A stretch of 64,000 bases of DNA from Eledone cirrhosa (Eukaryota): positions 28,334,001 to 28,398,000 of the forward strand of contig OZ024753.1 of NCBI GenBank assembly GCA_964016885.1, written 5' to 3'. Below the pieces are notes generated by a model. The model was not told the DNA's origin, searched no databases, and saw only the letters and a list, made by a program, of their open reading frames with translations. Numbering within the stretch: the first letter of the stretch is position 1; every line of letters starts with the position of its first letter. The translations under genes and the position numbers were made by a program. Shown piece by piece: positions 1-64,000 of this stretch.

Positions 1-404
1 TCTCCCTCTTGTTACTTTGGCTATCATTCTATTTCATTATACAATCATTTAAATCAGTTACAATAATTTTCTTCCATATTGGGCCTGCATGCTACAGAGT
101 GCCTTAAGTGTATTTTCTTGGCAACAATACAAGGGAGGTTGTCATGCCTTTGGCACAACTGAAGAGTCACCTGTACACTTTGTTTGGCAAGTTTTCTACA
201 GTTGAATGCCCTTCCTGTTGCCAACCACTGTTATCTAGATCTCACCATTACTAGAGAAGTTGTTACTTCCTTGACACTATAGAAGAGTTCTCTTGACCCT
301 TTCTTTGGAATATTTTATATGGGTGGAATCCCTTCCTAACACCAACTTGTCTAATGTATGCAAGCATGGAAAATAGAGGTTAAGCAGTGATGATACACAC
401 ATAC

Positions 405-427
405 ACATGCACGCACACACGCACACA

Positions 428-493
<66 letters not shown>

Positions 494-565
494 TGCACAT
501 GTGCACATAAATCATACACACATTCACACACACATTCACACAAACACACACATTCACACACACAC
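405..565. repeat. (CA)n microsatellite
   Basis: Long CA/CACG dinucleotide run; explains the spurious CV/HT ORFs. Confidence 0.95.
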
Positions 566-1004
566 CCAGACATATATATAAATCAATAACCCTAATGCTC
601 AACACCACATGAAATTTCAGATTTTACTGCCGCAAGATACAGCAAGCAGAAACATAAAAATCTGTATGCCTCATAACACTACAGTTTTTTAAGGATGTCA
701 GGCAAAGGTTGCAAAAGGTAACTTATTTTTATATTTTTCTCTGCTGATTTAGAAGGTAGTTTCTCATTTAATGTTCTTCCAATATTCATGAAACCATTTT
801 TCAAACATGGTTGACTGTCTTTGACTTAGTAACATCACTTGTTAATCAATTCCAGTTCATATGGATCTTGTTTGAGAAGGTTTTCTTTCTCGATAGAATG
901 TTTGCATAATTTCATAAATAATCAATGGGAATATATAGAAAGTCACAGTTATCTACGAGAATCTATAGAAAGATAGTTATCTATGAGAATATATAGAAAG
1001 TCAC

Positions 1005-2120
1005 ATAGTATAGGGAATATAGAAAGGTACATAGTATAGGGAGTATATAGAAAGACAGTTATCCATGAGAATATATAGAAAGTGTATAGAAAAGTACATA
1101 GTATAGGGAATATACAGTATAAGGAATATATAGAGAGGTACATAGTATAGGGAATATATAGAAAAGTACATAGTATAGGGAATATATAGAAAGGTACATA
1201 GTATAGTGAATATATAGAAAGGTACATAGTATAGTGAATATTTAGAAAGGTACATAGTATAGGGATTATATAGAAAGGTACATAGTATAGGGAATATATA
1301 GAAAGGTACATAGTATAGGGAATATATAGAGAGGTACATAGTATAGGGAATATATAGAGAGGTACATAGTATAGGGATTATATAGAAGGTACATAGTATA
1401 GGGAATATATAGAGAGGTACATAGTATAGGGAATATATAGAGAGGTACATAGTATAGGGAATATATAGAGAGGTACATAGTATAGTGAATATATAGAGAG
1501 GTACATAGTATAGGGAATATATAGAGTGGTACATAGTATAGGGAATATATAGAGAGGTACATAGTATAGTGAATATATAGAGAGGTACATAGTATAGGGA
1601 ATATATAGAGAGGTACATAGTATAGGAAATATATAGACAGGTACATAGTGTAGGGATTATATAGAAGGTACATAGTATAGGGATTATATAGAGAGGTACA
1701 TAATATAGGAAATAAAAAGAGAGGTACATAGTATAGGGAATATATAGAGAGGTATATAGTATAGGGAATATATAGACAGGTACATAGTGTAGGGATTATA
1801 TAGAAGGTACATAGTATAGGGAATATATAGAGAGGTACATAGTATAAGGAATATATAGAGAGGTACATAGTATAGGGATTATATAGAAAGGTACATAGTA
1901 ATGGGATTATATAGAGAGGTACATAGTATAGGGAATATATAGAGAGGTACATAGTATAAGGAATATATAGAGAGGTACATAGTATAGGGATTATATAGAA
2001 AGGTACATAGTATAGGGAATATATAGAGAGGTACATAGTATAAGGAATATATAGAGAGGTACATAGTATAGGGATTATATAGAAAGGTACATAGTAATGG
2101 GATTATATAGAGAGGTACGT
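1005..2120. repeat. 28-bp minisatellite, about 40 copies
   Basis: Unit GTACATAGTATAGGGAATATATAGAGAG repeated head-to-tail with point variants; explains the repetitive MYLSIYSLYY ORFs. Confidence 0.95.
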
Positions 2121-2273
2121 AGTTATCTACGGTTTTGTTGCTCTGCATACATCTTAGACAGGCTACTCTGATAGCATTTCTGTTTCAAACTGGCTGTGGT
2201 CCCCGGTAGCAGTGTTAGATCAGGGATTTCTGGAAATTAACCATAGTTCCTTGGACTTTCAGCCCAGTTCATT

Positions 2274-2880
2274 CTGATCAATTCAACCTGATCAATTCAA
2301 CCTGATCAATTCACTGATCAATTCAACCTGATCAATTCAACCTGATCAATTCACTGATCAATTCAACCTGATAAATTCAACCTGATCAATTCAACCTGAT
2401 CAATTCACTGATCAATTCAACCTGATCAATTCAACCTGATCAATTCACTGATCAATTCAACCTGATCAATTCAACCTGATCAATTCAACCTGATCAATTC
2501 ACTGATCAATTCAACCTGATCAATTCAACCTGATCAATTCACTGATCAATTCAACCTGATCAATTCACTGATCAATTCAACCTGATCAATTCAACCTGAT
2601 CAATTCACTGATCAATTCAACCTGATCAATTCAACCTGATCAATTCACTGATCAATTCACTGATCAATTCAACCTGATCAATTCAATGATCAATTCAACC
2701 TGATCAATTCAACCTGATCAATTCACTGATCAATTCACTGATCAATTCAACCTGATCAATTCAATGATCAATTCAACCTGATCAATTCAACCTGATCAAT
2801 TCACTGATCAATTCACTGATCAATTCAACCTGATCAATTCAACCTGATCAATTCACTGATCAATTCACTGATCAATTCAA
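2274..2880. repeat. Mixed 14/12-bp minisatellite
   Basis: Units CTGATCAATTCAAC (14 bp) and CTGATCAATTCA (12 bp) interspersed over ~600 bp. Confidence 0.95.
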
Positions 2881-2973
2881 TCTGTCCCACCCAGTCTAAT
2901 CAATACTTTCTGGTCGATGTCTAGAATTTCTTCAAGAAAGTCACCCTACTTCTCCATCACTAATCCTCTATAC

Positions 2974-3158
2974 CACTGGTTCCCAAAGTGGGTTCTGCAG
3001 AATCCAAGGGTTCTGCAAAAGCGTGTCTGGGGTTCTGTGAAAAAAGGTAGAGGAGTATATTTATATTACGACCATATAACAGTATTAGACTTTGGGGATC
3101 CCCCAAAAGTTTCTGAACCAAAAAGGGTTCTGTGTTTGAAAAACTTTGGGAAACCCTG
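2974..3158. mobile_element. hAT (Charlie/Buster-like) MITE
   Basis: Termini CACTGGTTCCCAAA...TTTGGGAAACCCTG; 8-bp TSD CTCTATAC/CTCTGTAC (1 mismatch). Confidence 0.8.
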
Positions 3159-3921
3159 CTCTGTACAATGCCGACATTGAATTTCTACTGACTACATTGG
3201 ACAACTAATAGAAGGCTGTGGGTGCCTGACAACAATCCAGATTCCAGGTGCTGAGTTTCAGTCTTCACTTGACCCAAGACTGTAGCTCAGCCAAAGAGAT
3301 GAGCTGTAGAAAATGGTGATCAGTTATCGGCCAGGAATTTTCAATTATTTATGTCTCTATTGTTCCTCGTCTATATTACTACTCCTGAGCTTACAGAATT
3401 AAGAATTCTCCTGTTCTGCTGCCAGTTGCAGTAAACAGCTGTGAGGACATTGGCAAAGATGCCTGATATATCTATGTAAATCTTGTAGGGCAGACTAGCC
3501 AAACCAGACAATCTGTACCTTGTACAACCACTTATGGGTGTTTGTATGTAAGCTGTTGCTATTGGTCTTTTGCAATATTTGGAATGCTCTTGAAGCCAAA
3601 TGGCCAATCAGACAATTACGACATGTGTGTTATCTGCACACCATCATCGTCATCATCATCATTATTTAATGTCTATTTTCCACGCTAGCATGGGTAGGAC
3701 AGGCTGTCCCTTTGTGAGAGATCAGGTTGGAGGACTGTGTTTTGCTCACACAGAACTGTCCAATGTCACAATAATTAATTCACAGGACTATGTAGCTCAG
3801 AAAATAATATTTACCATAACATTCAGTTAACGTGCAAGATTTACACACTTTGTATGTGGTTAATGTACCGACCTCCAGAGATATATAACTTCCATACACT
3901 ATTTTAGTAATAACAGCTTAA

Positions 3922-4145
3922 CCCATTACCATTTACATTACTCTATATATACTATTGTATTTTCACAGTAAAGGCTTTATCTCACATAGTTATCTCACAG
4001 AATATCGAAACTATGAGATTTTGATGATTTTATTTATTTTGAGAACAATACCTTAACATCGGTATGAGTGGCTGGTTACGGCTGGTTTGAACAAAAAGAG
4101 GTGAGAGAATTCTGGCTGGATACTGCCGGTTTAAATGCTAAAGGG
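3922..4145. mobile_element. piggyBac-like MITE
   Basis: TTAA-CCC...GGG-TTAA ends with TIR ~CCCTTTAGCATTTA; same family at 16864, 26845 and 34649. Confidence 0.8.
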
Positions 4146-8006: not shown

Positions 8007-8228
8007 ATATATATAGAAGGAAATTGTAGTTTACTTGAAGCATTGCATAGTGAGGTATAAACGTACGTTTGGAGTTAGAAGGCCAGAACAATGCAGGTAT
8101 GGATATAGAATATAAATACAAATGCAAAAGATATCGCTGACAATTAGTCTTTTACCTTAAATTTATTTGAATATACATACATACATACATATATATACAT
8201 ATATATATGTATATATATATATATATAT

Positions 8229-8970
8229 AAACGGAAAAAAATGAAACGAAATTTCATTTCCGACTCTTAGTACGGCTGTTACTTAAATATAAGTATGTAC
8301 ACGTACATACATATATGTATACAGACGTACAGTAGTATGTATATATATATACATACATGCACACATATATATATGCACGTATGGATTCACCGAACATTTA
8401 TTATAATGCTTTGGTGTGTTTGTAAAAAAACAAACATCCCGTATTAAGCCGTAGTGTCTAGCAACCATCGTTGCTCGTTTGTTCAACACTGACAAAGGAA
8501 CGCTGTACTAGTTTCAAGCTTATTAGCTATCGTCAGCAACGTATACCTTCCTGCCAGATTGTTGAACGTATATACTTACCTTATGCATATTAACGGCTGA
8601 GTAGCCCAATTTGCATATCGAGTGGGTTAATCGGCCGGGTGCACCGAAAACAATAAACGGAAAAAATGAAACAAAATTTCATTTCCCACTCTTAGTACGG
8701 CTGTTACTTAAATATAAGTATGTACACGTACATACATATATGTATACAGACGTACAGTAGTATGTATATATATATACATACATGCACACATATATATATG
8801 TAGTGTTGAACAAACGAGCAACGATGGTTGCTAGACACTACGGCTTGATACGGGCTGTTTGTTTACAAGCACACCGAGCATTATAATAAATGTTCGGTGA
8901 ATCCATACGTGCATATATATATGTGTGCATGTATGTATATATATATACATACTACTGTACGTCTGTATAT
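8229..8970 (-). mobile_element. Retrozyme-like element, locus 1 (~1.35 tandem units plus inverted segment)
   Basis: AACGGAAAAAATGAAAC recurs at ~8230 and ~8657 (period ~427). 8802-8970 is the reverse complement of ~8320-8490. Homologous to 42981-44033; (TA)n flanks. Confidence 0.8.
8495..8552 (-). ncRNA. Type I hammerhead ribozyme
   Basis: Minus strand reads AGGAAGGTAT-ACGTTG-CTGACGA-TAGCT-AATA-AGCTT-GAAAC-TA-GTA-CAGCGT-TCCTT; conserved core, stems I-III pair. Confidence 0.8.
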
Positions 8971-8976
8971 ATATAT

Positions 8977-9050
8977 TGCCTTGTCCGACGAACGAATGAG
9001 GACGTTTCTTTCGTATTCGTCTTATTCGGGAAATCTCTGGTAATGAGGTA
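8977..9050 (+). ncRNA. Hammerhead-like ribozyme, U4C core variant (PLE-type)
   Basis: TGCCTTGT-CCGACGA, long stem II (CGAATGAGGACG/CGTCTTATTCG), GAAA-TCTCTG-GTA-ATGAGGTA; 8-bp stem I with G-U pairs. Confidence 0.55.
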
Positions 9051-9097
9051 ATTATATTGTATTGTTTATTATACATTATATATATATATATGTCAAA

Positions 9098-42427: not shown

Positions 42428-42984
<557 letters not shown>

Positions 42985-43290
42985 AAGTATGTACACGTAC
43001 ATACATATATGTATACCGACGTACAGTAGTATGTATATATATATATACATACATGCACACATATATATATGCACGTATGGATTCACTGTACGTCGGTATA
43101 CATATATGTATGTACGTGTACATACTTATATTTAAGTAACAGCCGTACTAAGAGTGGGAAATGAAATATCGTTTCATTTTTTCCGTTTATCGTTTTCGGT
43201 GCACCCGGCCGATTAACCCACTCGATATGCATATTGGGCTACTCAGCCGTTAATATGCATAAGGTAAGTATATACGTTCAACAATCTGGC

Positions 43291-43348
43291 AGGAAGGTAT
43301 ACGTTGCTGACGATAGCTAACAAGCTTGAAACTAGTACAGCGTTCCTT
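43291..43348 (+). ncRNA. Type I hammerhead ribozyme (unit 1)
   Basis: CTGACGA at 43307-43313, GAAAC at 43328-43332, palindromic ACTAGT stem III, predicted GUA cleavage after 43337, stem I ACGTTG/CAGCGT. Confidence 0.85.
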
Positions 43349-43712
43349 TGTCAGTGTTGAACAAACGAGCAACGGTGGTTGCTAGACACTACGGCTTAAT
43401 ACGGGATGTTTGTTTACAAACACACCGAGCATTATAATAAATGTTCGGTGAATCCATACGTGCATATATATATGTGTGCATGTATGTATATATATATATA
43501 CATACTACTGTACGTCGGTATACATATATGTATGTACGTGTACATACTTATATTTAAGTAACAGCCGTACTAAGAGTGGGAAATGAAATATCGTTTCATT
43601 TTTTCCGTTTATCGTTTTCGGTGCACCCGGCCGATTAACCCACTCGATATGCATATTGGGCTACTCAGCCGTTAATATGCATAAGGTAAGTATATACGTT
43701 CAACAATCTGGC

Positions 43713-43770
43713 AGGAAGGTATACGTTGCTGACGATAGCTAACAAGCTTGAAACTAGTACAGCGTTCCTT
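43713..43770 (+). ncRNA. Type I hammerhead ribozyme (unit 2)
   Basis: Identical motif 422 bp downstream; predicted cleavage after 43759. Confidence 0.85.
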
Positions 43771-44144
43771 TGTCAGTGTTGAACAAACGAGCAACGGTGG
43801 TTGCTAGACACTACGGCTTAATACGGGATGTTTGTTTACAAACACACCGAGCATTATAATAAATGTTCGGTGAATCCATACGTGCATATATATATGTGTG
43901 CATGTATGTATATATATATATACATACTACTGTACGTCGGTATACATATATGTATGTACGTGTACATACTTATATTTAAGTAACAGCCGTACTAAGAGTG
44001 GGAAATGAAATATCGTTTCATTTTTTCCGTTTATATATATATATATATATATATATTGGGAAAATTTGAACAGGAACAAAACAGAGAGGCAGTACAACGA
44101 ATGTTTATTAATTTCACGCTCTGGAGAGTGGGGTGGTGGTGGGG

Positions 44145-47586: not shown

Positions 47587-50500
47587 TGCTAAGACAGTCG
47601 CTGATATGTGTACCTTGGTAGTTACAAAAGAGAGCTCTATATAATTATTACTGCCAGACAGTCACTCATGTATGGGCCTTGGTAGTTACAAAAGAGAGCT
47701 CTATATAATTATTACTGCCAGACAGTCACTCATGTATGGGCCTTGGTAGTTACAAAAGACAGCTCTATATAATTATTACTGCCAGACAGTCACTCATGTA
47801 TGGGCCTTGGTAGTTACAAAAGACAGCTCTATATAATTATTACTGCCAGACAGTCACTCATGTATGGGCCTTGGTAGTTACAAAAGAGAGCTCTATATAA
47901 TTATTACTGCCAGACAGTCACTCATGTATGGGCCTTGGTAGTTACAAAAGACAGCTCTATATAATTATTACTGCCAGACAGTCACTCATGTATGGGCCTT
48001 GGTAGTTACAAAAGAGAGCTCTATATAATTATTACTGCCAGACATTCACTCATGTATGGGCCTTGTTAGTTACAAAAGAGAGCTCTATATAATTGTTACT
48101 GCCAGACGGTCACTCATGTATGGGCCTTGGTAGTTACAAAAGAGAGCTCTATATAATTATTACTGCCAGACAGTCACTCATGTATGGGCCTTGGTAGTTA
48201 CAAAAGAGAGCTCTATATAATTGTTACTGCCAGACAGTCACTCATGTATGGGCCTTGGTAGTTACAAAAGAGAGCTCTATATAATTATTACTGCCAGACA
48301 GTCACTCATGTATGGGCCTTGGTAGTTACAAAAGAGAGCTCTATATAATTATTACTGCCAGACAGTCACTCATGTATAGGCCTTGGTAGTTACAAAAGAG
48401 AGCTCTATATAATTATTACTGCCAGACAGTCACTCATGTATAGGCATTGGTAGTTACAAAAGAGAGTTATATATAATTATTACTGCCAGACAGTCACTCA
48501 TGTATGGGCCTTGGTAGTTACAAAAGATAGCACTATATAATTATTACTGCCAGACAGTCACTCATGTATGGGCCTTGGTAGTTACAAAAGACAGTTCTAT
48601 ATAATTATTACTGCCAGACAGTCACTCATGTATAGGCATTGGTAGTTACAAAAGAGAGCTCTATATAATTATTACTGCCAGACAGTCACTCATGTATGAG
48701 CCTTGGTAGTTACAAAAGAGAGCTCTATAAAATTATTACTGCCAGACAGTCACTCATGTATGGGCCTTGGTAGTTAAAAAAGACAGCTCTATATAATTAT
48801 TACTGCCAGACAGTCACTCATGTATGGGCCTTGGTAGTTACAAAAGAGAGCTCTATATAATTATTACTGCCAGACAGTCACTCATGTATAGGCCTTGGTA
48901 GTTACACAAGGGAGCTCTATATAATTATTACTGCCAGACAGTCACTCATGTATAGGCCTTGGTAGTTACAAAAGAGAGCTCTATATAATTATTACTGCCA
49001 GACAGTCACTCATGTATGGGCCTTGGTAGTTACAAAAGAGAGCTCTATATAATTATTACTGCCAGACAGTCACTCATGTATGGGCCTTGGTAGTTACAAA
49101 AGACAGCTCTATATAATTATTACAGCCAGAGAGTCATTCATGTATGGGCCTTGGTAGTTACAAAAGAGAGCTCTATATAATTATTACTGCCAGACAGTCA
49201 CTCATGTATGGGCCTTGGTAGTTACAAAAGACAGCTCTATATAATTATTACTGCCAGACAGTCACTCATGTATGGGCCTTGGTAGTTACAAAAGGGAGCT
49301 CTATATAATTATTACTGCCAGACAGTCACTCATGTATGGGCCTTGGTAGTTACAAAAGAGAGCTCTATATAATTATTACTGCCAGACAGTCACTCATGTA
49401 TGGGCCTTGGTAGTTACAAAAGTGAGCTCTATATAATTATTACTGCCAGACAGTCACTCATGTATGGGCCTTGGTAGTTACAAAAGACAGCACTATATAA
49501 TTATTACTGCCAGACAGTCACTCATGTATGGGCCTTGGTAGTTACAAAAGAGAGCTCTATATAATTATTACTGCCAGACAGTCACTCATGTATAGGCCTT
49601 GGTAGTTACAAAAGGGAGCTCTATATAATTATTACTGCCAGACAGTCACTCATGTATAGGCCTTGGTAATTACAAAAGAGAGCTCTATATAATTATTACT
49701 GCCAGACAGTCACTCATGTATGGGCCTTGGTAGTTACAAAAGAGAGCTCTATATAATTATTACTGCCAGACAGTCACTCATGTATGGGCCTTGGTAGTTA
49801 CAAAAGACAGCTCTATATAATTATTACTGCCAGACAGTCACTCATGTATGGGCCTTGGTAGTTACAAAAGAGAGCTCTATATAATTATTACTGCCAGACA
49901 GTCACTCATGTATGGGCCTTGGTAGTTACAAAAGACAGCTCTATATAATTATTACTGCCAGACAGTCACTCATGTATGGGCCTTGGTAGTTACAAAAGGG
50001 AGCTCTATATAATTATTACTGCCAGACAGTCACTCATGTATGGGTCTTGGTAGTTACAAAAGAGAGCTCTATATAATTATTACTGCCAGACAGTCACTCA
50101 TGTATGGGCCTTGGTAGTTACAAAAGAGAGCTCTATACAATTATTACTGCCAGACAGTCACTCATGTATAGGCATTGGTAGTTACAAAAGAGAGCTCTAT
50201 ATAATTATTACTGCCAGACAGTCACTTATGTATGGGCCTTGGTAGTTACAAAAGAGAGCTCTATTAAATTATTACTGCCAGACAGTCACTCATGTATGGG
50301 CCTTGGTAGTTAAAAAAGAGAGCTCTATATAATTATTACTGCAAGACAGTCACTCATGTATGGGCCTTGGTAGTTACAAAAGAGAGCTCTATATAATTAT
50401 TACTGCCAGACAGTCACTCATGTATGGGCCTTGGTAGTTACAAAAGACAGCTCTATATAATTATTACTGCCAGACAGTCACTCATGTATGGGTCTTGGTA

Positions 50501-53500
50501 GTTACAAAAGAGAGCTCTATATAATTATTACTGCCAGACAGTCACTCATGTATAGGCCTTGGTAGTTACAAAAGGGAGCTCTATATAATTATTACTGCCA
50601 GACAGTCACTCATGTATAGGCATTGGTAGTTACAAAAGAGAGCTCTATATAATTATTACTGCCAGACAGTCACTCATGTATGGGCCTTGGTAGTTACAAA
50701 AGAGAGCTCTATATAATTATTACTGCCAGACAGTCACTCATGTATAGGCATTGGTAGTTACAAAAGAGAGCTCTATATAATTATTACTGCCAGACAGTCA
50801 CTCATGTATGAGCCTTGGTAGTTACAAAAGAGAGCTCTATAAAATTATTACTGCCAGACAGTCACTCATGTATGGGCCTTGGAAGTTAAAAAAGAGAGCT
50901 CTATATAATTATTACTGCAAGACAGTCACTCATGTATGGGCCTTGGTAATTACAAAAGAGAGCTCTATATAATTATTACTGCCAGACAGTCACTCATGTA
51001 TGGGCCTTGGTAGTTACAAAAGACAGCTCTATATAATTATTACTGCCAGACAGTCACTCATGTATGGGCCTTGGTAGTTATAAAAGGGAGCTCTATATAA
51101 TTATTACTGCCAGACAGTCACTCATGTATAGGCGTTGGTAGTTACAAAAGAGAGCTCTATATAATTATTACTGCCACACAGTCACTCATGTATGGGCCTT
51201 GGTAGTTACAAAAGACAGCTCTATATAATTATTACTGCCAGACAGTCACTCATGTAGTGGCCTTGGTAGTTACAAAAGAGAGCTCTATATAATTATTACT
51301 GCCAGACAGTCACTCATGTATGGGCCTTGGTAGTTACAAAAGACAGCTCTATATAATTATTACTGCCAGACAGTCACTCATGTATGAGCCTTGGTAGTTA
51401 CAAAAGAGAGCTCTATATAATTATTACTGCCAGACATTCACTCATGTATAGGCCTTGGTAGTTACAAAAGGGAGCTCTATATAATTATTACTGCCAGACA
51501 GTCACTCATGTATAGGCCTTGGTAGTTACAAAAGAGAGCTCTATATAATTATTACTGCCAGACAGTGACTCATGTATGGGCCTTGGTAGTTACAAAAGAG
51601 AGCTCTATATAATTATTACTGCCAGACAGTCACTCATGTATGGGCCTTGGTAGTTACAAAAGACAGCTCTATATAATTATTACTGCCAGACAGTCACTCA
51701 TGTATGGGCCTTGGTAGTTACAAAAGAGAGCTCTATATAATTATTACTGCCAGACAGTCACTCATGTATGGGCCTTGGTAGTTACAAAAGAGAGCTCTAT
51801 ACAATTATTACTGCCAGACAGTCACTCATGTATAGGCATTGGTAGTTACAAAAGAGAGCTCTATATAATTATTACTGCCAGACAGTCACTCATGTATGGG
51901 CCTTGGTAGTTACAAAAGAGAGTTCTATTAAATTATTACTGCCAGACAGTCACTCATGTATGGGCCTTGGTAGTTAAAAAAGAGAGCTCTATATAATTAT
52001 TACTGCAAGACAGTCACTCATGTATGGGCCTTGGTAGTTACAAAAGAGAGCTCTATATAATTATTACTGCCAGACAGTCACTCATGTATGGGCCTTGGTA
52101 GTTACAAAAGACAGCTCTATATAATTATTACTGCCAGACAGTCACTCATGTATGGGTCTTGGTAGTTACAAAAGAGAGCTCTATATAATTATTACTGCCA
52201 GACAGTCACTCATGTATGGGCCTTGGTAGTCACAAAAGAGAGCTCTATATAATTATTACTGCCAGACAGTCACTCATGTATGGGCCTTGGTAGTTACAAA
52301 AGACAGCTCTATATAATTATTACAGCCAGAGAGTCATTCATGTATGGGCCTTGGTAGTTACAAAAGAGAGCTCTATATAATTATTACTGCCAGACAGTCA
52401 CTCATGTATGGGCCTTGGTAGTTACAAAAGACAGCTCTATATAATTATTACTGCCAGACAGTCACTCATGTATGGGCCTAGGTAGTTACAAAAGGGAGCT
52501 CTATATAATTATTACTGCCAGACAGTCACTCATGTATGGGCCTTGGTAGTTACAAAAGAGAGCTCTATATAATTATTACTGCCAGACAGTCACTCATGTA
52601 TGGGCCTTGGTAGTTACAAAAGTGAGCTCTATATAATTATTACTGCCAGACAGTCACTCATGTATGGGCCTTGGTAGTTACAAAAGACAGCTCTATATAA
52701 TTATTACTGCCAGACAGTCACTCATGTATGGGCCTTGGTAGTTACAAAAGAGAGCTCTATATAATTATTACTGCCAGACAGTCACTCATGTATAGGCCTT
52801 GGTAGTTACAAAAGGGAGCTCTATATAATTATTACTGCCAGACAGTCACTCATGTATAGGCCTTGGTAGTTACAAAAGAGAGCTCTATATAATTATTACT
52901 GCCAGACAGTCACTCATGTATGGGCCTTGGTAGTTACAAAAGAGAGCTCTATATAATTATTACTGCCAGACAGTCACTCATGTATGGGCCTTGGTAGTTA
53001 CAAAAGACAGCTCTATATAATTATTACTGCCAGACAGTCACTCATGTATGGGCCTTGGTAGTTACAAAAGAGAGCTCTATATAATTATTACTGCCAGACA
53101 GTCACTCATGTATGGGCCTTGGTAGTTACAAAAGACAGCTCTATATAATTATTACTGCCAGACAGTCACTCATGTATGGGCCTTGGTAGTTACAAAAGGG
53201 AGCTCTATATAATTATTACTGCCAGACAGTCACTCATGTATGGGTCTTGGTAGTTACAAAAGAGAGCTCTATATAATTATTACTGCCAGACAGTCACTCA
53301 TGTATGGGCCTTGGTAGTTACAAAAGAGAGCTCTATACAATTATTACTGCCAGACAGTCACTCATGTATAGGCATTGGTAGTTACAAAAGAGAGCTCTAT
53401 ATAATTATTACTGCCAGACAGTCACTTATGTATGGGCCTTGGTAGTTACAAAAGAGAGCTCTATTAAATTATTACTGCCAGACAGTCACTCATGTATGGG

Positions 53501-56500
53501 CCTTGGTAGTTAAAAAAGAGAGCTCTATATAATTATTACTGCAAGACAGTCACTCATGTATGGGCCTTGGTAGTTACAAAAGAGAGCTCTATATAATTAT
53601 TACTGCCAGACAGTCACTCATGTATGGGCCTTGGTAGTTACAAAAGACAGCTCTATATAATTATTACTGCCAGACAGTCACTCATGTATGGGTCTTGGTA
53701 GTTACAAAAGAGAGCTCTATATAATTATTACTGCCAGACAGTCACTCATGTATAGGCCTTGGTAGTTACAAAAGGGAGCTCTATATAATTATTACTGCCA
53801 GACAGTCACTCATGTATAGGCATTGGTAGTTACAAAAGAGAGCTCTATATAATTATTACTGCCAGACAGTCACTCATGTATGGGCCTTGGTAGTTACAAA
53901 AGAGAGCTCTATATAATTATTACTGCCAGACAGTCACTCATGTATAGGCATTGGTAGTTACAAAAGAGAGCTCTATATAATTATTACTGCCAGACAGTCA
54001 CTCATGTATGAGCCTTGGTAGTTACAAAAGAGAGCTCTATAAAATTATTACTGCCAGACAGTCACTCATGTATGGGCCTTGGAAGTTAAAAAAGAGAGCT
54101 CTATATAATTATTACTGCAAGACAGTCACTCATGTATGGGCCTTGGTAGTTACAAAAGAGAGCTCTATATAATTATTACTGCCAGACAGTCACTCATGTA
54201 TGGGCCTTGGTAGTTACAAAAGACAGCTCTATATAATTATTACTGCCAGACAGTCACTCATGTATGGGCCTTGGTAGTTATAAAAGGGAGCTCTATATAA
54301 TTATTACTGCCAGACAGTCACTCATGTATAGGCATTGGTAGTTACAAAAGACAGCTCTATATAATTATTACTGCCAGACAGTCACTCATGTAGTGGCCTT
54401 GGTAGTTACAAAAGAGAGCTCTATATAATTATTACTGCCAGACAGTCACTCATGTATGGGCCTTGGTAGTTACAAAAGACAGCTCTATATAATTATTACT
54501 GCCAGACAGTCACTCATGTATGAGCCTTGGTAGTTACAAAAGAGAGCTCTATATAATTATTACTGCCAGACATTCACTCATGTATAGGCCTTGGTAGTTA
54601 CAAAAGGGAGCTCTATATAATTATTACTGCCAGACAGTCACTCATGTATAGGCCTTGGTAGTTACAAAAGAGAGCTCTATATAATTATTACTGCCAGACA
54701 GTGACTCATGTATGGGCCTTGGTAGTTACAAAAGAGAGCTCTATATAATTATTACTGCCAGACAGTCACTCATGTATGGGCCTTGGTAGTTACAAAAGAC
54801 AGCTCTATATAATTATTACTGCCAGACAGTCACTCATGTATGGGCCTTGGTAGTTACAAAAGAGAGCTCTATATAATTATTACTGCCAGACAGTCACTCA
54901 TGTATGGGCCTTGGTAGTTACAAAAGAGAGCTCTATACAATTATTACTGCCAGATAGTCACTCATGTATAGGCATTGGTAGTTACAAAAGAGAGCTCTAT
55001 ATAATTATTACTGCCAGACAGTCACTCATGTATGGGCCTTGGTAGTTACAAAAGAGAGTTCTATTAAATTATTACTGCCAGACAGTTACTCATGTATGGG
55101 CCTTGGTAGTTAAAAAAGAGAGCTCTATATAATTATTACTGCAAGACAGTCACTCATGTATGGGCCTTGGTAGTTACAAAAGAGAGCTCTATATAATTAT
55201 TACTGCCAGACAGTCACTCATGTATGGGCCTTGGTAGTTACAAAAGACAGCTCTATATAATTATTACTGCCAGACAGTCACTCATGTATGGGTCTTGGTA
55301 GTTACAAAAGAGAGCTCTATATAATTATTACTGCCAGACAGTCACTCATGTGTAGGCCTTGGTAGTTACAAAAGACAGCTCTATATAATTATTACTGCAA
55401 GACAATCACTCATGTATAGGCATTGGTAGTTACAAAAGAGAGTTCTATATAATTATTACTGCCAGACAGTCACTCATGTATGGGCCTTGGTAGTTACAAA
55501 AGAGAGCTCTATATAATTATTACTGCCAGACAGTCACTCATGTATAGGCATTGGTAGTTACAAAAGAGAGCTCTATATAATTATTACTGCCAGACAGTCA
55601 CTCATGTATGAGCCTTGGTAGTTACAAAAGAGAGCTCTATAAAATTATTACTGCCAGACAGTCACTCATGTATGGGCCTTGGTAGTTAAAAAAGAGAGCT
55701 CTATATAATTATTACTGCAAGACAGTCACTCATGTATGGGCCTTTTGTAGTTACAAAAGAGAGCTCTATATAATTATTACTGCCAGACAGTCACTCATGT
55801 ATGGGCCTTGGTAGTTACAAAAGACAGCTCTATATAATTATTACTGCCAGACAGTCACTCATGTATGGGCCTTGGTAGTTACAAAAGAGAGCTCTATATA
55901 ATTATTACTGCCAGACAGTCACTCATGTATAGGCCTTGGTAGTTACAAAAGGGAGCTCTATATAATTATTACTGCCAGACAGTCACTCATGTATAGGCCT
56001 TGGTAGTTACAAAAGAGAGCTCTATATAATTATTACTGCCACACAGTCACTCATGTATGGGCCTTGGTAGTTACAAAAGACAGCTCTATATAATTATTAC
56101 TGCCAGACAGTCACTCATGTAGTGGCCTTGGTAGTTACAAAAGAGAGCTCTATATAATTATTACTGCCAGACAGTCACTCATGTATGGGCCTTGGTAGTT
56201 ACAAAAGAGAGCTCTATATAATTATTACTGCCAGACAGTCACTCATGTATGGGCCTTGGTAGTTACAAAAGACAGCTCTATATAATTATTACTGCCAGAC
56301 AGTCACTCATGTATGGGCCTTGGTAGTTACAAAAGAGAGCTCTATATAATTATTACTGCCAGACAGTCACTCATGTATGGGCCTTGGTAGTTACAAAAGA
56401 CAGCTCTATATAATTATTACTGCCAGACAGTCACTCATGTATGGGCCTTGGTAGTTACAAAAGAGAGCTCTATATAATTATTACTGCCAGACAGTCACTC

Positions 56501-59500
56501 ATGTATGGGCCTTGGTAGTTACAAAAGAGAGCTCTATATAATTATTACTGCCAGACAGTCACTCATGTATGGGCCTTGGTAGTTACAAAAGACAGCTCTA
56601 TATAATTATTACTGCCAGACAGTCACTCATGTATGGGCCTTGGTAGTTACAAAAGAGAGCTCTATATAATTATTACTGCCAGACAGTCACTCATGTATGG
56701 GCCTTGGTAGTTACAAAAGACAGCTCTATATAATTATTACTGCCAGACAGTCACTCATGTATAGGCCTTGGTAGTTACAAAAGGGAGCTCTATATAATTA
56801 TTACTGCCAGACAGTCACTCATGTATAGGCCTTGGTAGTTACAAAAGAGAGCTCTATATAATTATTACTGCCAGGCAGTCACTCATGTATGGGCCTTGGT
56901 AGTTACAAAAGAGAGCTCTATATAATTATTACTGCCAGACAGTCACTCATGTATGGGCCTTGGTAGTTACAAAAGAGAGCTCTATATAATTATTACTGCC
57001 AGACAGTCACTCATGTATGGGCCTTGGTAGTTACAAAAGAGAGCTCTATATAATTATTACTGCCAGACAGTCACTCATGTATGGGCCTTGGTAGTTACAA
57101 AAGACAGCTCTATATAATTATTACTGCAAGACAGTCACTCATGAAAGGGCCTTGGTAGTTACAAAAGAGAGCTCTATATAATTATTACTGCCAGACAGTC
57201 ACTCATGTATGGGCCTTGGTAGTTACAAAAGACAGCTCTATATAATTATTACTGCCAGACGGTCACTCATGTATGGGCCTTGGTAGTTACAAAAGAGAGC
57301 TCTATATAATTATTACTGCCAGACAGTCACTCATGTATAGGCCTTGGTAGTTATAAAAGGGAGCTCTATATAATTATTACTGCCAGACAGTCACTCATGC
57401 ATGGGCCTTGGTAGTTACAAAAGACAGCTCTATATAATTATTACTGCCAGACAGTCACTCATGTATGGGCCTTGGTAGTTACAAAAGAGAGCTCTATATA
57501 ATTATTACTGCCAGACAGTCACTCATGTATAGGCCTTGGTAGTTACAAAAGGGAGCTCTATATAATTATTACTGCCAGACAGTCACTCATGTATAGGCCT
57601 TGGTAGTTACAAAAGAGAGCTCTGTATAATTATTACTGCCAGACAGTCACTCATGTATGGGCCTTGGTAGTTACAAAAGAGAGCTCTATATAATTATTAC
57701 TGCCAGACAGTCACTCATGTATGGGCCTTGGTAGTTACAAAAGACAGCTCTATATAATTATTACTGCCAGACAGTCACTCATGTATAGGCCTTGGTAGTT
57801 ACAAAAGAGAGCTCTATATAATTATTACTGCCACACAGTCACTCATGTATGGGCCTTGGTAGTTACAAAAGACAGCTCTATATAATTATTACTGCCAGAC
57901 AGTCACTCATGTATGGGCCTTGGTAGTTACAAAAGACAGCTCTATATAATTATTACTGCCAGACAGTCACTCATGTATAGGCCTTGGTAGTTACAAAAGA
58001 GAGCTCTATATAATTATTACTGCCACACAGTCACTCATGTATGGGCCTTGGTAGTTACAAAAGACAGCACTATATAATTATTACTGCCAGACAGTCACTC
58101 ATGTAGTGGCCTTGGTAGTTACAAAAGAGAGCTCTATATAATTATTACTGCCAGACAGTCACTCATGTATGGGCCTTGGTAGTTACAAAAGAGAGCTCTA
58201 TATAATTATTACTGCCAGACAGTCACTCATGTATGGGCCTTGGTAGTTACAAAAGACAGCTCTATATAATTATTACTGCCAGACAGTCACTCATGTATGG
58301 GCCTTGGTAGTTACAAAAGAGAGCTCTATATAATTATTACTGCCAGACAGTCACTCATGTATGGGCCTTGGTAGTTACAAAAGACAGCTCTATATAATTA
58401 TTACTGCCAGACAGTCACTCATGTATGGGCCTTGGTAGTTACAAAAGAGAGCTCTATATAATTATTACTGCCAGACAGTCACTCATGTATGGGCCTTGGT
58501 AGTTACAAAAGAGAGCTCTATATAATTATTACTGCCAGACAGTCACTCATGTATGGGCCTTGGTAGTTACAAAAGACAGCTCTATATAATTATTACTGCC
58601 AGACAGTCACTCATGTATGGGCCTTGGTAGTTACAAAAGAGAGCTCTATATAATTATTACTGCCAGACAGTCACTCATGTATGGGCCTTGGTAGTTACAA
58701 AAGACAGCTCTATATAATTATTACTGCCAGACAGTCACTCATGTATAGGCCTTGGTAGTTACAAAAGGGAGCTCTATATAATTATTACTGCCAGACAGTC
58801 ACTCATGTATAGGCCTTGGTAGTTACAAAAGAGAGCTCTATATAATTATTACTGCCAGACAGTCACTCATGTATGGGCCTTGGTAGTTACAAAAGACAGC
58901 TCTATATAATTATTACTGCCAGACAGTCACTCATGTATGGGCCTTGGTAGTTACAAAAGAGAGCTCTATATAATTATTACTGCCAGACAGTCACTCATGT
59001 ATGGGCCTTGGTAGTTACAAAAGAGAGCTCTATATAATTATTACTGCCAGACAGTCACTCATGTATGGGCCTTGGTAGTTACAAAAGACAGCTCTATATA
59101 ATTATTACTGCCAGACAGTCACTCATGTATGGGCCTTGGTAGTTACAAAAGAGAGCTCTATATAATTATTACTGCCAGACAGTCACTCATGTATGGGCCT
59201 TGGTAGTTACAAAAGACAGCTCTATATAATTATTACTGCCAGACAGTCACTCATGTATAGGCCTTGGTAGTTACAAAAGGGAGCTCTATATAATTATTAC
59301 TGCCAGACAGTCACTCATGTATAGGCCTTGGTAGTTACAAAAGAGAGCTCTATATAATTATTACTGCCAGACAGTCACTCATGTATGGGCCTTGGTAGTT
59401 ACAAAAGAGAGCTCTATATAATTATTACTGCCAGACAGTCACTCATGTATGGGCCTTGGTAGTTACAAAAGAGAGCTCTATATAATTATTACTGCCAGAC

Positions 59501-62500
59501 AGTCACTCATGTATGGGCCTTGGTAGTTACAAAAGAGAGCTCTATATAATTATTACTGCCAGACAGTCACTCATGTATGGGCCTTGGTAGTTACAAAAGA
59601 CAGCTCTATATAATTATTACTGCAAGACAGTCACTCATGAATGGGCCTTGGTAGTTACAAAAGAGAGCTCTATATAATTATTACTGCCAGACAGTCACTC
59701 ATGTATGGGCCTTGGTAGTTACAAAAGACAGCTCTATATAATTATTACTGCCAGACAGTCACTCATGTATGGGCCTTGGTAGTTACAAAAGAGAGCTCTA
59801 TATAATTATTACTGCCAGACAGTCACTCATGTATAGGCCTTGGTAGTTATAAAAGGGAGCTCTATATAATTATTACTGCCAGACAGTCACTCATGCATGG
59901 GCCTTGGTAGTTACAAAAGACAGCTCTATATAATTATTACTGCCAGACAGTCACTCATGTATGGGCCTTGGTAGTTACAAAAGACAGCTCTATATAATTA
60001 TTACTGCCAGACAGTCACTCATGTATGGGCCTTGGTAGTAACAAAAGAGAGCTCTATATAATTATTACTGCCAGACAGTCACTCATGTATGGGCCTTGGT
60101 AGTTACAAAAGACAGCTCTATATAATTATTACTGCCAGACAGTCACTCATGTATGGGCCTTGGTAGTTACAAAAGGGAGCTCTATATAATTATTACTGCC
60201 AGACAGTCACTCATGTATGGGCCTTGGTAGTTACAAAAGAGAGCTCTATATAATTATTACTGCCAGACAGTCACTCATGTATGGGCCTTGGTAGTTACAA
60301 AAGAGAGCTCTATACAATTATTACTGCCAGACAGTCACTCATGTATAGGCATTGGTAGTTACAAAAGAGAGCTCTATATAATTATTACTGCCAGACAGTC
60401 ACTCATGTATGGGCCTTGGTAGTTACAAAAGAGAGCTCTATTAAATTATTACTGCCAGACAGTCACTCATGTATGGGCCTTGGTAGTTAAAAAAGAGAGC
60501 TCTATATAATTATTACTGCAAGACAGTCACTCATGTATGGGCCTTGGTAGTTACAAAAGAGAGCTCTATATAATTATTACTGCCAGACAGTCACTCATGT
60601 ATGGGCCTTGGTAGTTACAAAAGACAGCTCTATATAATTATTACTGCCAGACAGTCACTCATGTATGGGTCTTGGTAGTTACAAAAGAGAGCTCTATATA
60701 ATTATTACTGCCAGACAGTCACTCATGTATAGGCCTTGGTAGTTACAAAAGGGAGCTCTATATAATTATTACTGCCAGACAGTCACTCATGTATAGGCAT
60801 TGGTAGTTACAAAAGAGAGCTCTATATAATTATTACTGCCAGACAGTCACTCATGTATGGGCCTTGGTAGTTACAAAAGAGAGCTCTATATAATTATTAC
60901 TGCCAGACAGTCACTCATGTATAGGCATTGGTAGTTACAAAAGAGAGCTCTATATAATTATTACTGCCAGACAGTCACTCATGTATGAGCCTTGGTAGTT
61001 ACAAAAGAGAGCTCTATAAAATTATTACTGCCAGACAGTCACTCATGTATGGGCATTGGTAGTTAAAAAAGAGAGCTCTATATAATTATTACTGCAAGAC
61101 AGTCACTCATGTATGGGCCTTGGTAGTTACAAAAGAGAGCTCTATATAATTATTACTGCCAGACAGTCACTCATGTATGGGCCTTGGTAGTTACAAAAGA
61201 GAGCTCTATATAATTATTACTGCCAGACAGTCACTCATGTATGGGTCTTGGTAGTTACAAAAGAGAGCTCTATATAATTATTACTGCCAGACAGTCACTC
61301 ATGTGTAGGCCTTGGTAGTTACAAAAGACAGCTCTATATAATTATTACTGCAAGACAATCACTCATGTATAGGCATTGGTAGTTACAAAAGAGAGTTCTA
61401 TATAATTATTACTGCCAGACAGTCACTCATGTATGGGCCTTGGTAGTTACAAAAGAGAGCTCTATATAATTATTACTGCCAGACAGTCACTCATGTATAG
61501 GCATTGGTAGTTACAAAAGAGAGCTCTATATAATTATTACTGCCAGACAGTCACTCATGTATGAGCCTTGGTAGTTACAAAAGAGAGCTCTATAAAATTA
61601 TTACTGCCAGACAGTCACTCATGTATGGGCCTTGGTAGTTAAAAAAGAGAGCTCTATATAATTATTACTGCAAGACAGTCACTCATGTATGGGCCTTTTG
61701 TAGTTACAAAAGAGAGCTCTATATAATTATTACTGCCAGACAGTCACTCATGTATGGGCCTTGGTAGTTACAAAAGACAGCTCTATATAATTATTACTGC
61801 CAGACAGTCACTCATGTATGGGCCTTGGTAGTTACAAAAGAGAGCTCTATATAATTATTACTGCCAGACAGTCACTCATGTATAGGCCTTGGTAGTTACA
61901 AAAGGGAGCTCTATATAATTATTACTGCCAGACAGTCACTCATGTATAGGCCTTGGTAGTTACAAAAGAGAGCTCTATATAATTATTACTGCCACACAGT
62001 CACTCATGTATGGGCCTTGGTAGTTACAAAAGACAGCTCTATATAATTATTACTGCCAGACAGTCACTCATGTAGTGGCCTTGGTAGTTACAAAAGAGAG
62101 CTCTATATAATTATTACTGCCAGACAGTCACTCATGTATGGGCCTTGGTAGTTACAAAAGAGAGCTCTATATAATTATTACTGCCAGACAGTCACTCATG
62201 TATGGGCCTTGGTAGTTACAAAAGACAGCTCTATATAATTATTACTGCCAGACAGTCACTCATGTATGGGCCTTGGTAGTTACAAAAGAGAGCTCTATAT
62301 AATTATTACTGCCAGACAGTCACTCATGTATGGGCCTTGGTAGTTACAAAAGAGAGCTCTATATAATTATTACTGCCAGACAGTCACTCATGTATGGGCC
62401 TTGGTAGTTACAAAAGAGAGCTCTATATAATTATTACTGCCAGACAGTCACTCATGTATGGGCCTTGGTAGTTACAAAAGAGAGCTCTATATAATTATTA

Positions 62501-64000
62501 CTGCCAGACAGTCACTCATGTATGGGCCTTGGTAGTTACAAAAGACAGCTCTATATAATTATTACTGCCAGACAGTCACTCATGTATGGGCCTTGGTAGT
62601 TACAAAAGAGAGCTCTATATAATTATTACTGCCAGACAGTCACTCATGTATGGGCCTTGGTAGTTACAAAAGACAGCTCTATATAATTATTACTGCCAGA
62701 CAGTCACTCATGTATAGGCCTTGGTAGTTACAAAAGGGAGCTCTATATAATTATTACTGCCAGACAGTCACTCATGTATAGGCCTTGGTAGTTACAAAAG
62801 AGAGCTCTATATAATTATTACTGCCAGGCAGTCACTCATGTATGGGCCTTGGTAGTTACAAAAGAGAGCTCTATATAATTATTACTGCCAGACAGTCACT
62901 CATGTATGGGCCTTGGTAGTTACAAAAGAGAGCTCTATATAATTATTACTGCCAGACAGTCACTCATGTATGGGCCTTGGTAGTTACAAAAGAGAGCTCT
63001 ATATAATTATTACTGCCAGACAGTCACTCATGTATGGGCCTTGGTAGTTACAAAAGACAGCTCTATATAATTATTACTGCAAGACAGTCACTCATGAAAG
63101 GGCCTTGGTAGTTACAAAAGAGAGCTCTATATAATTATTACTGCCAGACAGTCACTCATGTATGGGCCTTGGTAGTTACAAAAGACAGCTCTATATAATT
63201 ATTACTGCCAGACAGTCACTCATGTATGGGCCTTGGTAGTTACAAAAGAGAGCTCTATATAATTATTACTGCCAGACAGTCACTCATGTATAGGCCTTGG
63301 TAGTTATAAAAGGGAGCTCTATATAATTATTACTGCCAGACAGTCACTCATGCATGGGCCTTGGTAGTTACAAAAGACAGCTCTATATAATTATTACTGC
63401 CAGACAGTCACTCATGTATGGGCCTTGGTAGTTACAAAAGAGAGCTCTATATAATTATTACTGCCAGACAGTCACTCATGTATAGGCCTTGGTAGTTACA
63501 AAAGGGAGCTCTATATAATTATTACTGCCAGACAGTCACTCATGTATGGGCCTTGGTAGTTACAAAAGACAGCTCTATATAATTATTACTGCCAGACAGT
63601 CACTCATGTATGGGCCTTGGTAGTTACAAAAGAGAGCTCTATATAATTATTACTGCCAGACAGTCACTCATGTGTAGGCCTTGGTAGTTACAAAAGACAG
63701 CTCTATATAATTATTACTGCAAGACAATCACTCATGTATAGGCATTGGTAGTTACAAAAGAGAGTTCTATATAATTATTACTGCCAGACAGTCACTCATG
63801 TATGGGCCTTGGTAGTTACAAAAGAGAGCTCTATATAATTATTACTGCCAGACAGTCACTCATGTATAGGCATTGGTAGTTACAAAAGAGAGCTCTATAT
63901 AATTATTACTGCCAGACAGTCACTCATGTATGAGCCTTGGTAGTTACAAAAGAGAGCTCTATAAAATTATTACTGCCAGACAGTCACTCATGTATGGGCC
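47587..64000. repeat. 64-bp satellite array, >16 kb (~256 units), continuing past the window end
   Basis: Unit CTGCCAGACAGTCACTCATGTATGGGCCTTGGTAGTTACAAAAGAGAGCTCTATATAATTATTA (starts at 47651, 47715, ...); no long ORF in any frame. Confidence 0.98.

Follow-up and report, generated by a model that had tools for sequence, protein, structure and literature searches.

Animal non-LTR retrozymes are described as non-coding tandem repeats with a unit of 150–450 bp, a GC content below 50% and one type I hammerhead ribozyme per unit (PMC7229834; 10.64898/2026.07.22.740005). They occur as dimers to large multimers and have been proposed to ride on Penelope-like elements (PLEs), and in the available text of the 2026 preprint the mechanism of their mobilisation is left open (10.64898/2026.07.22.740005). 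The repeat described here resembles them in its unit, its predicted hammerhead, its multimers and the proposed link to PLEs. Xenopus retrozymes match PLE terminal repeats (10.64898/2026.07.22.740005), a match that was not found for our repeat in the loci examined. Conversely, the available descriptions of animal non-LTR retrozymes do not include fixed ends at two sites, head-to-head arms or a (TA)n target, all of which were found here. Circular RNA and cleavage have been demonstrated for known animal retrozymes, whereas the present repeat is known from genomic sequence.

PLEs of the Hydra clade insert in (TA)n and carry hammerheads, and their partial tandems include an inverted copy that is 5'-truncated, together with a tail that is often found at one end only (PMC8557442), in all of which they agree with our repeat. 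The differences are that no protein is encoded here, and that the tail measures 57 nt, as compared to 30–40 nt in the Hydra clade. In the available text of PMC8557442 the tail is attributed to endonuclease resolution, and no rule is given by which one end is long and the other short. Inverted arms and a one-ended tail were already in print (PMC3846280, PMC8557442), and the origin of the tandem and inverted structures of PLEs is named as an open problem (PMC8557442, section 15). The closest biochemical work concerns the Poseidon PLE of Anolis carolinensis, for which it was found in vitro that both target strands are cut and extended, and that two internal start sites bound the tail (PMC11167929). 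Like the present repeat, Poseidon combines two internal starts bounding a tail with an AT-rich target, and a dimer is predicted for it; in contrast, the available text describes neither homology to the target where synthesis starts nor a difference between strands, whereas in our repeat TA microhomology is present at both sites and the two ends of an insertion use different ones.

The window analysed here is a stretch of 64,000 nucleotides of Eledone cirrhosa (assembly GCA_964016885.1, contig OZ024753.1, positions 28,334,001 to 28,398,000), and all window positions below refer to this stretch. It contains two loci that are both copies of one 422-bp non-coding repeat with a type I hammerhead motif. 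As unit reference we used window 43338–43759 (422 bp), in which position 1 is the first base past the predicted hammerhead cut. At locus 1, the A arm (8229–8800 or 8227–8800, minus strand) consists of unit positions 126–422 followed by 1–273, i.e. 1.35 units with 96% identity to the 422-bp unit, and its end defines site A; it reaches unit position 275 if the AT common to the microsatellite is counted. This end adjoins an interrupted (TA)n tract (8171–8229) with a pure 19-nt run at the junction. The tail, which extends from site B to site A and includes the terminal hairpin, occupies 8229–8286 (minus strand), and a type I hammerhead motif is located at 8499–8543 (minus strand), with its predicted cut between 8506 and 8505. 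The inverted arm (8802 to about 8968, plus strand) corresponds to unit positions 16–184 and ends about 32 nt before site B. Beyond it lies a 110-nt stub (8972–9081, plus strand) of the terminal repeat of a Hydra-clade PLE, family H4, which has a hammerhead-like core and ends on (TA)n.

At locus 2, an interrupted (TA)n tract of 369 bp (42617–42985) adjoins the B arm (42981–43086, minus strand; unit 111–216), which ends at site B and shares 2 nt with the A arm where the two meet head-to-head. The A arm (43085–44034, plus strand) runs from unit position 170 to 275 through 2.25 units that are 100% identical, and ends at site A next to (TA)12 (44032–44056). It includes two copies of the type I hammerhead on the plus strand, at 43301–43343 (predicted cut after 43337) and 43723–43765 (predicted cut after 43759), the latter with a palindromic helix III and with U-U rather than G-C at the base of helix II. 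The 57-nt tail from site B to site A is located at 43976–44032 (plus strand); a small predicted hairpin has site B in its loop, and site A is just 3' of a larger one.

Both direct arms end at unit position 273, or 275 when the AT common to the (TA)n microsatellite is counted. This agrees with an earlier reading of the window from its sequence only, in which both loci were said to share a fixed 3' end on (TA)n, about 274 nt downstream of the predicted cut. The coordinates given in that reading for the ends are correct, but the terminal run is not, locus 1 having seven T rather than six. The two loci were also rightly seen to have differing inversions, while the fixed outer end of the inverted segments themselves, site B, was missed; it is visible at locus 2 and absent at locus 1. 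The two loci are not a segmental duplication, since their flanks have only matches of 40–177 bp in common, at unrelated offsets, which we read as other repeats.

In the hammerhead core of each unit, helix I has 6 bp, helix II has 4 bp and is closed by U-U, and helix III is a palindrome of 2 bp. The form with a short palindromic helix III works as a dimer, and the pair G10.1-C11.1 is highly conserved in hammerheads (PMC4209133); in the retrozyme hammerhead U-U stands where this pair is expected. Among Xenopus retrozyme dimers, eight of nine failed to cleave in vitro (10.64898/2026.07.22.740005). The catalytic core is conserved in three sister families that are about 65–80% alike, the sister repeats measuring 496 bp and 469 bp. 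In an alignment of six rows of the sister families, five of the 14 helix pairs change on both sides, a number reached in none of 500 shuffles, with the restriction that this covariation rests nearly wholly on one divergent row, the 469-bp sister repeat. An Rfam scan gave no hammerhead among the 150 of 208 rows listed; the microRNA-precursor matches among these rows were sub-threshold, located on TA-rich hairpins, and were rejected. With its low-GC tandem unit, predicted hammerhead and dispersed copies, the repeat has the testable marks of an animal non-LTR retrozyme. The 496-bp sister is present in an array of about 14 near-identical units (L152, contig C2 at about 346.806–346.813 Mb) and has both fixed ends too. 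The 469-bp sister (L191:1–895) has G-C at the base of helix II, and the position of its A end is the same.

Genome-wide, the exact A junction was found 4,127 times, as compared to 0 for a reversed-pattern control, and the exact B junction 4,755 times, as compared to 1 for the control. Site B is at about unit position 216, with 57 nt between B and A. For a detailed tally we took the 63 loci that lie behind the first 100 listed matches, out of 12,707 in the genome, of an internal 19-mer; they are on contig C1, in its first 42 Mb. A further 11 young loci and six others were also fetched. The 63 loci were selected by the internal 19-mer and not by arm ends; as this 19-mer sits between B and A, short arms with only a B end are under-sampled. 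In these loci, 48 of the 106 arms end at A (within an 8-nt window), 45 of them running into TA, and 35 end at B, of which 33 are in TA. The other 23 arms end elsewhere, five into TA. Together 83 of the 106 arms end at A or B, where 4.5% would be expected under uniform ends. The ends are clearly not random, the possibility on which the sequence-only reading had suggested that its proposal could fail, and the proposed targeting of (TA)n and the defined internal start beside a hairpin are likewise supported, site A being just past the larger predicted hairpin. The fold of the hairpin tail has z = -1.9, which is weak by itself. Both sites have 3–5 nt of TA microhomology matching the target, UAU at A and UAUAU at B. 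The median length of the TA run is 24 beside A ends and 30 beside B ends, values near the length-weighted background of 25 in the same loci, so that they speak neither for nor against an addition of TA by the enzyme.

The copies are dispersed and mobile, as they have differing flanks and young copies are 100% identical, and tandem arrays of the 422-bp unit reach at least 15 units. Across the young arrays no open frame of 170 aa or more was found. No public contig bridges an empty site at locus 1, and a target-site duplication would not be readable within (TA)n. A short non-coding palindromic element, also TA-targeted and with two fixed ends about 78 nt apart, was observed at L055:3685–3920, and also at L032, L046 and L079.

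The two ends are not combined at random. A first pass over the 63 loci gave 22 head-to-head pairs of an A arm with a B arm (A+B), one B+B pair and no A+A pair, with another 11 pairs in which at least one end was of another kind. The single B+B pair (L074) runs on to A beyond an expanded TA tract, and was reassigned by hand to A+B. The final numbers, obtained from the BLAST-based tally once this pair had been reassigned and very short arms had been rescued by an exact motif, are 26 A+B pairs, no A+A and no B+B pairs, 12 pairs with at least one end elsewhere, and 33 solo arms (about 19 A, five B and nine with other ends). The rescue motif had no background matches in 370,712 bp. One locus (L060) contributes four of the 26 A+B pairs, in the form of two duplicated pairs. 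An end caller based on a fuzzy motif had been discarded, as it produced 32 background B calls and four apparent B+B pairs. In the 11 young loci there are nine A+B pairs, and again no A+A or B+B pairs. Decay or single-primer insertions would explain the solo arms and the pairs with other ends. At L053:3721 and L079:3335 a retrozyme A arm is found head-to-head with an arm of a different TA-targeted family.

In a set of 150 arms, the 5' ends are scattered across the unit; an enrichment of these ends at the ribozyme cut was not seen, only three of the 150 lying within 2 nt of it. At the 17 joints of high identity, ten have an overlap of 1–4 nt, five have 1–3 extra nt, two have a palindromic centre and none is blunt, while random joining would be expected to leave 54% without overlap. 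Either arm can be the longer one: among the 22 first-pass A+B pairs it is the B arm in 13 and the A arm in nine, and at L039, L062 and L106 an A arm of 40–72 nt is next to a B arm of 225–442 nt.

These arm lengths bear directly on the explanation that a single cDNA, primed at A, folds back or switches template, the inverted arm being a by-product that stops by chance at the TATAT patch; a related self-priming model has been proposed in PMC3846280. The palindromic centres of two of the 17 young joints, the 5 nt of TA homology at site B, and the inverted arm of locus 1, which is chimeric with the Hydra stub, would all fit such a process. However, an A arm of 40–72 nt cannot template a B arm of 225–442 nt; a fold-back of the A cDNA is thereby excluded as a general route, and the longer B arm in the majority of the pairs points the same way. 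Moreover, the long TA-rich tract at unit positions 126–166 has far more homology than site B; nevertheless, B is the end of 35 arms, only a few arms stop at other places in TA, and B also ends solo arms. We consider this explanation improbable. The proposal in the sequence-only reading that insertion is finished by template switching is not supported as a general rule, since the inverted arm has a fixed, TA-abutting end of its own and is so often the longer one. Given this fixed end and a length that reaches 442 nt beside a short A arm, the most suitable reading of the inverted arm is that of a second cDNA with target priming of its own.

If the second arm is target-primed, the two arms could also be two independent insertions in one microsatellite, or copies of two unrelated RNAs made by uncoupled complexes. 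TA tracts in this genome gather many elements, in three joints (L053, L079 and locus 1) the partner of a retrozyme A arm belongs to another family, and the arms of L045 and L059 differ in haplotype. But independent events predict that about half of the pairs are A+A or B+B, and pairs of the same type number 0 of 35; they also predict TA between the arms, which abut directly, and the arms share subfamily variants. These results refute uncoupled events, and we hold the explanation as a whole to be even less probable than fold-back. A variant in which one complex binds two RNAs asymmetrically may apply, and falls within our best explanation. That the palindromes are artefacts of assembly or inverted duplications born in replication would fit one locus of the Hydra-clade family H7 (L208, see below), whose two halves mirror each other perfectly and both end at B. 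As the arms differ in length, stop at two sites defined by their sequence and, in old copies, have become different from each other, and as opposite-strand joints are also present in contigs of the public runs X6, X3 and X8, this is refuted for the family, and we regard it as hardly credible. Paired target priming remains our preferred reading.

The candidate source of the enzyme is present in the same genome. The fetched loci are rich in proteins with the marks of the Hydra clade, which are RWK-type and DKT motifs, a CxCX5C linker and, at the C-terminus, a GIY-YIG-like domain (PMC8557442). Family H7 is represented by dozens of identical-scoring copies with an open frame of 821 aa, and H8 by many copies with an open frame of 785 aa; the H7 protein has RWT, DKT, CxCX5C, CxxC and CxH motifs, and H8 and H4 have RWK. 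Pfam gave no match for H7; in its Atlas neighbours, HTH_animal, GIY-YIG and RVT_1 domains were found in part of the members. These two young Hydra-clade families, with frames of 821 and 785 aa, are located at L209, L201–L220 and L221–L232, and H7 has a unit of 3.9 kb with ends 88 nt apart. H7 has its fixed ends at +46 and +134, counted from the cut of its own hammerhead, and (TA)n adjoins them in every case; of the 12 scorable pairs in 17 loci 11 are A+B, one is B+B (the mirror locus L208) and none is A+A. When 282–4,126 sites are compared, the same-locus arms of H7 differ by 0–0.28%; for nine of the 11 overlapping pairs the median difference from other loci is 0.18–1.6%, and for the remaining two, which are short, it is close to 0. 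The partner arm is strictly closest in six of these 11 pairs, one being the mirror. H1 and H4 also have two fixed ends.

A Penelope-like mode of insertion, as had been suggested from the window, is supported by the target in (TA)n, the partial tandem, the inverted 5' arm and the one-ended tail. The autonomous PLE with the same terminal hairpin that was also suggested was not found: among H1, H3, H4, H7, H8 and the other fetched loci, no element has sequence in common with the tail or ribozyme of the retrozyme. The enzyme can for this reason be assigned by target and architecture only. One locus (L091) was rejected as an autonomous partner, as here the retrozyme abuts and is nested in a copy of the Hydra element H1, which has different ends of its own. 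Judged from these comparisons, the repeat inserts like a Hydra PLE and has no sequence in common with the autonomous terminal repeats examined.

The two arms of a locus share subfamily variants. At 22 sites diagnostic for subfamilies, same-locus arms differ at 9.8%, as compared to 24.0% for identity-matched arms elsewhere, and among 25 older pairs the same-locus value is the lower one in 23. If overall distance is used, only two of 42 retrozyme pairs have the partner as the strictly closest arm, and a test with rare variants was uninformative as to the relation between arms, with 23 variants shared and 311 in one arm only. At L045 one variant is present in six of the seven units of the A arm and missing from the B arm, and at L045 and L059 the two arms are of different haplotype. 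Gene conversion at a later time, or a single source locus that supplied two RNAs, could alternatively account for the shared variants.

With respect to the form of the template, the sequence-only reading had left the choice between a circular and a multimeric RNA, and in that joint form it is supported. A narrower explanation is that the template is an uncleaved linear read-through of tandem master arrays, with an inert hammerhead and no circle, twin priming being otherwise unchanged. The U-U at the base of helix II is in line with this, as is the variation of units inside some arms (L045, L059, L100 and L109), which suits tandem transcripts or later conversion, and hammerhead mutants were still inserted in vitro (PMC11167929). 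On the other hand, the array of at least 15 near-identical 424-bp units at L091 and the private variant present in four of four units at L098 suit rolling-circle copying, and together with the two overlapping multi-unit arms per locus at L093 and L100 they would be simpler to explain on a circle; the catalytic core, moreover, is conserved across the three sister families. We take the linear template to be a real possibility, with somewhat less than even odds. At L058:2693–4623 units of two haplotypes follow each other in turn (X Y X Y X), with 14–16 differences between types and 0–4 within, a period of two that could reflect a dimer circle or a later tandem duplication. In two presumed RNA runs, coverage was confined to a TA-rich patch of 35 nt of the repeat.

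On the basis of the paired ends, we consider it likely that the window loci are insertions of a 422-bp animal retrozyme, and that a Hydra-clade Penelope enzyme primes from both ends of a break in (TA)n, at sites A and B. The unit, both fixed ends, the flanking TA, the A+B pairing, the variable 5' ends, the joints, the variants shared between arms, and the same rule in an intact Hydra element are visible in the genomic sequence, and the proposal builds on them. We propose that a Hydra-clade endonuclease would open both strands of a TA microsatellite, after which each target 3' end would anneal to 3–5 nt of UA on the RNA, UAU at A and UAUAU at B, and reverse transcription would start from both strands, using A for one of them and B for the other. 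Protein binding may take place at the hairpin tail that lies between B and A, and the two priming events are presumably coupled, probably within a protein dimer. Each cDNA could then extend over several units on a circular or tandem RNA; finally, the 3' ends of the cDNAs would be joined, often via 1–4 nt of microhomology, and repair would fill in the second strands.

This proposal is related to the twin priming of LINE-1, in which both target strands prime on the RNA and a 5' inversion is joined by microhomology. In LINE-1 the position of the second priming varies, and the two pieces represent adjacent stretches of the RNA, whereas the present repeat has a fixed second site and arms that overlap, in many cases over several units. 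In a more specific form, Penelope-type insertion would be an asymmetric twin priming by a dimer on one circular ribozyme RNA, with two reverse transcriptases starting at fixed sites that flank the hairpin and each displacing the cDNA of the other. This form is tentative, and we hold it to be rather unlikely in all its details; if true, it would bring the inversions of pseudo-LTRs, the one-sided tail and the retrozyme arrays under one rule, and locus 1 would record a retrozyme RNA that was copied inside a Hydra complex.

The one-ended tail, the two start sites and the extension of both strands were each known separately. The strict A+B rule, or its use for retrozymes, was not found stated in the literature searched, which largely excludes subscription journals and of which parts were available. 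The pairing of a long end with a short end in a protein-free RNA of 422 nt, and also in intact Hydra elements of the same genome, makes the repeat a minimal substrate. It leads to a sharp prediction for the existing in vitro system, namely that one target strand should start at A and the other at B.

Locus 1 is atypical. Its inverted arm stops at unit position 184, crosses an 11-nt TATA patch and enters the stub of the H4 terminal repeat, which ends on (TA)n at the upstream fixed site (B) of H4 itself. The H4 terminal repeat leads to a reading frame with RWK and DKT motifs in L267, L272 and L273. Nine of the 19 other top matches, in eight loci, break just upstream of the H4 stub. A template switch may have taken place at this locus, in which case the cDNA of the B side would have begun on Hydra H4 RNA and then switched onto the retrozyme RNA, so that a retrozyme A end is combined with an H4 B end; a deletion between two neighbouring elements is about equally likely. 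In L246–L263, the 5' joint of the H4 stubs frequently falls on a single position just upstream of the hammerhead, which might correspond to the 5' terminus of the H4 RNA.

Some further features of the window were observed. Penelope elements are known to carry an intron near the ribozyme. At window 43264–43272, about 45 nt upstream of the hammerhead, the unit of the young subfamily has a canonical 9-mer resembling a splice donor, which is altered in older copies. An additional hammerhead-like motif, of the H2 Hydra type, is present elsewhere in the window. Minisatellites with units of 28 bp and 13–14 bp are located at 927–2123 and 2274–2884, respectively, and the final 16.4 kb (47592–64000) is occupied by a 64-bp satellite with 256 copies of 96% identity.
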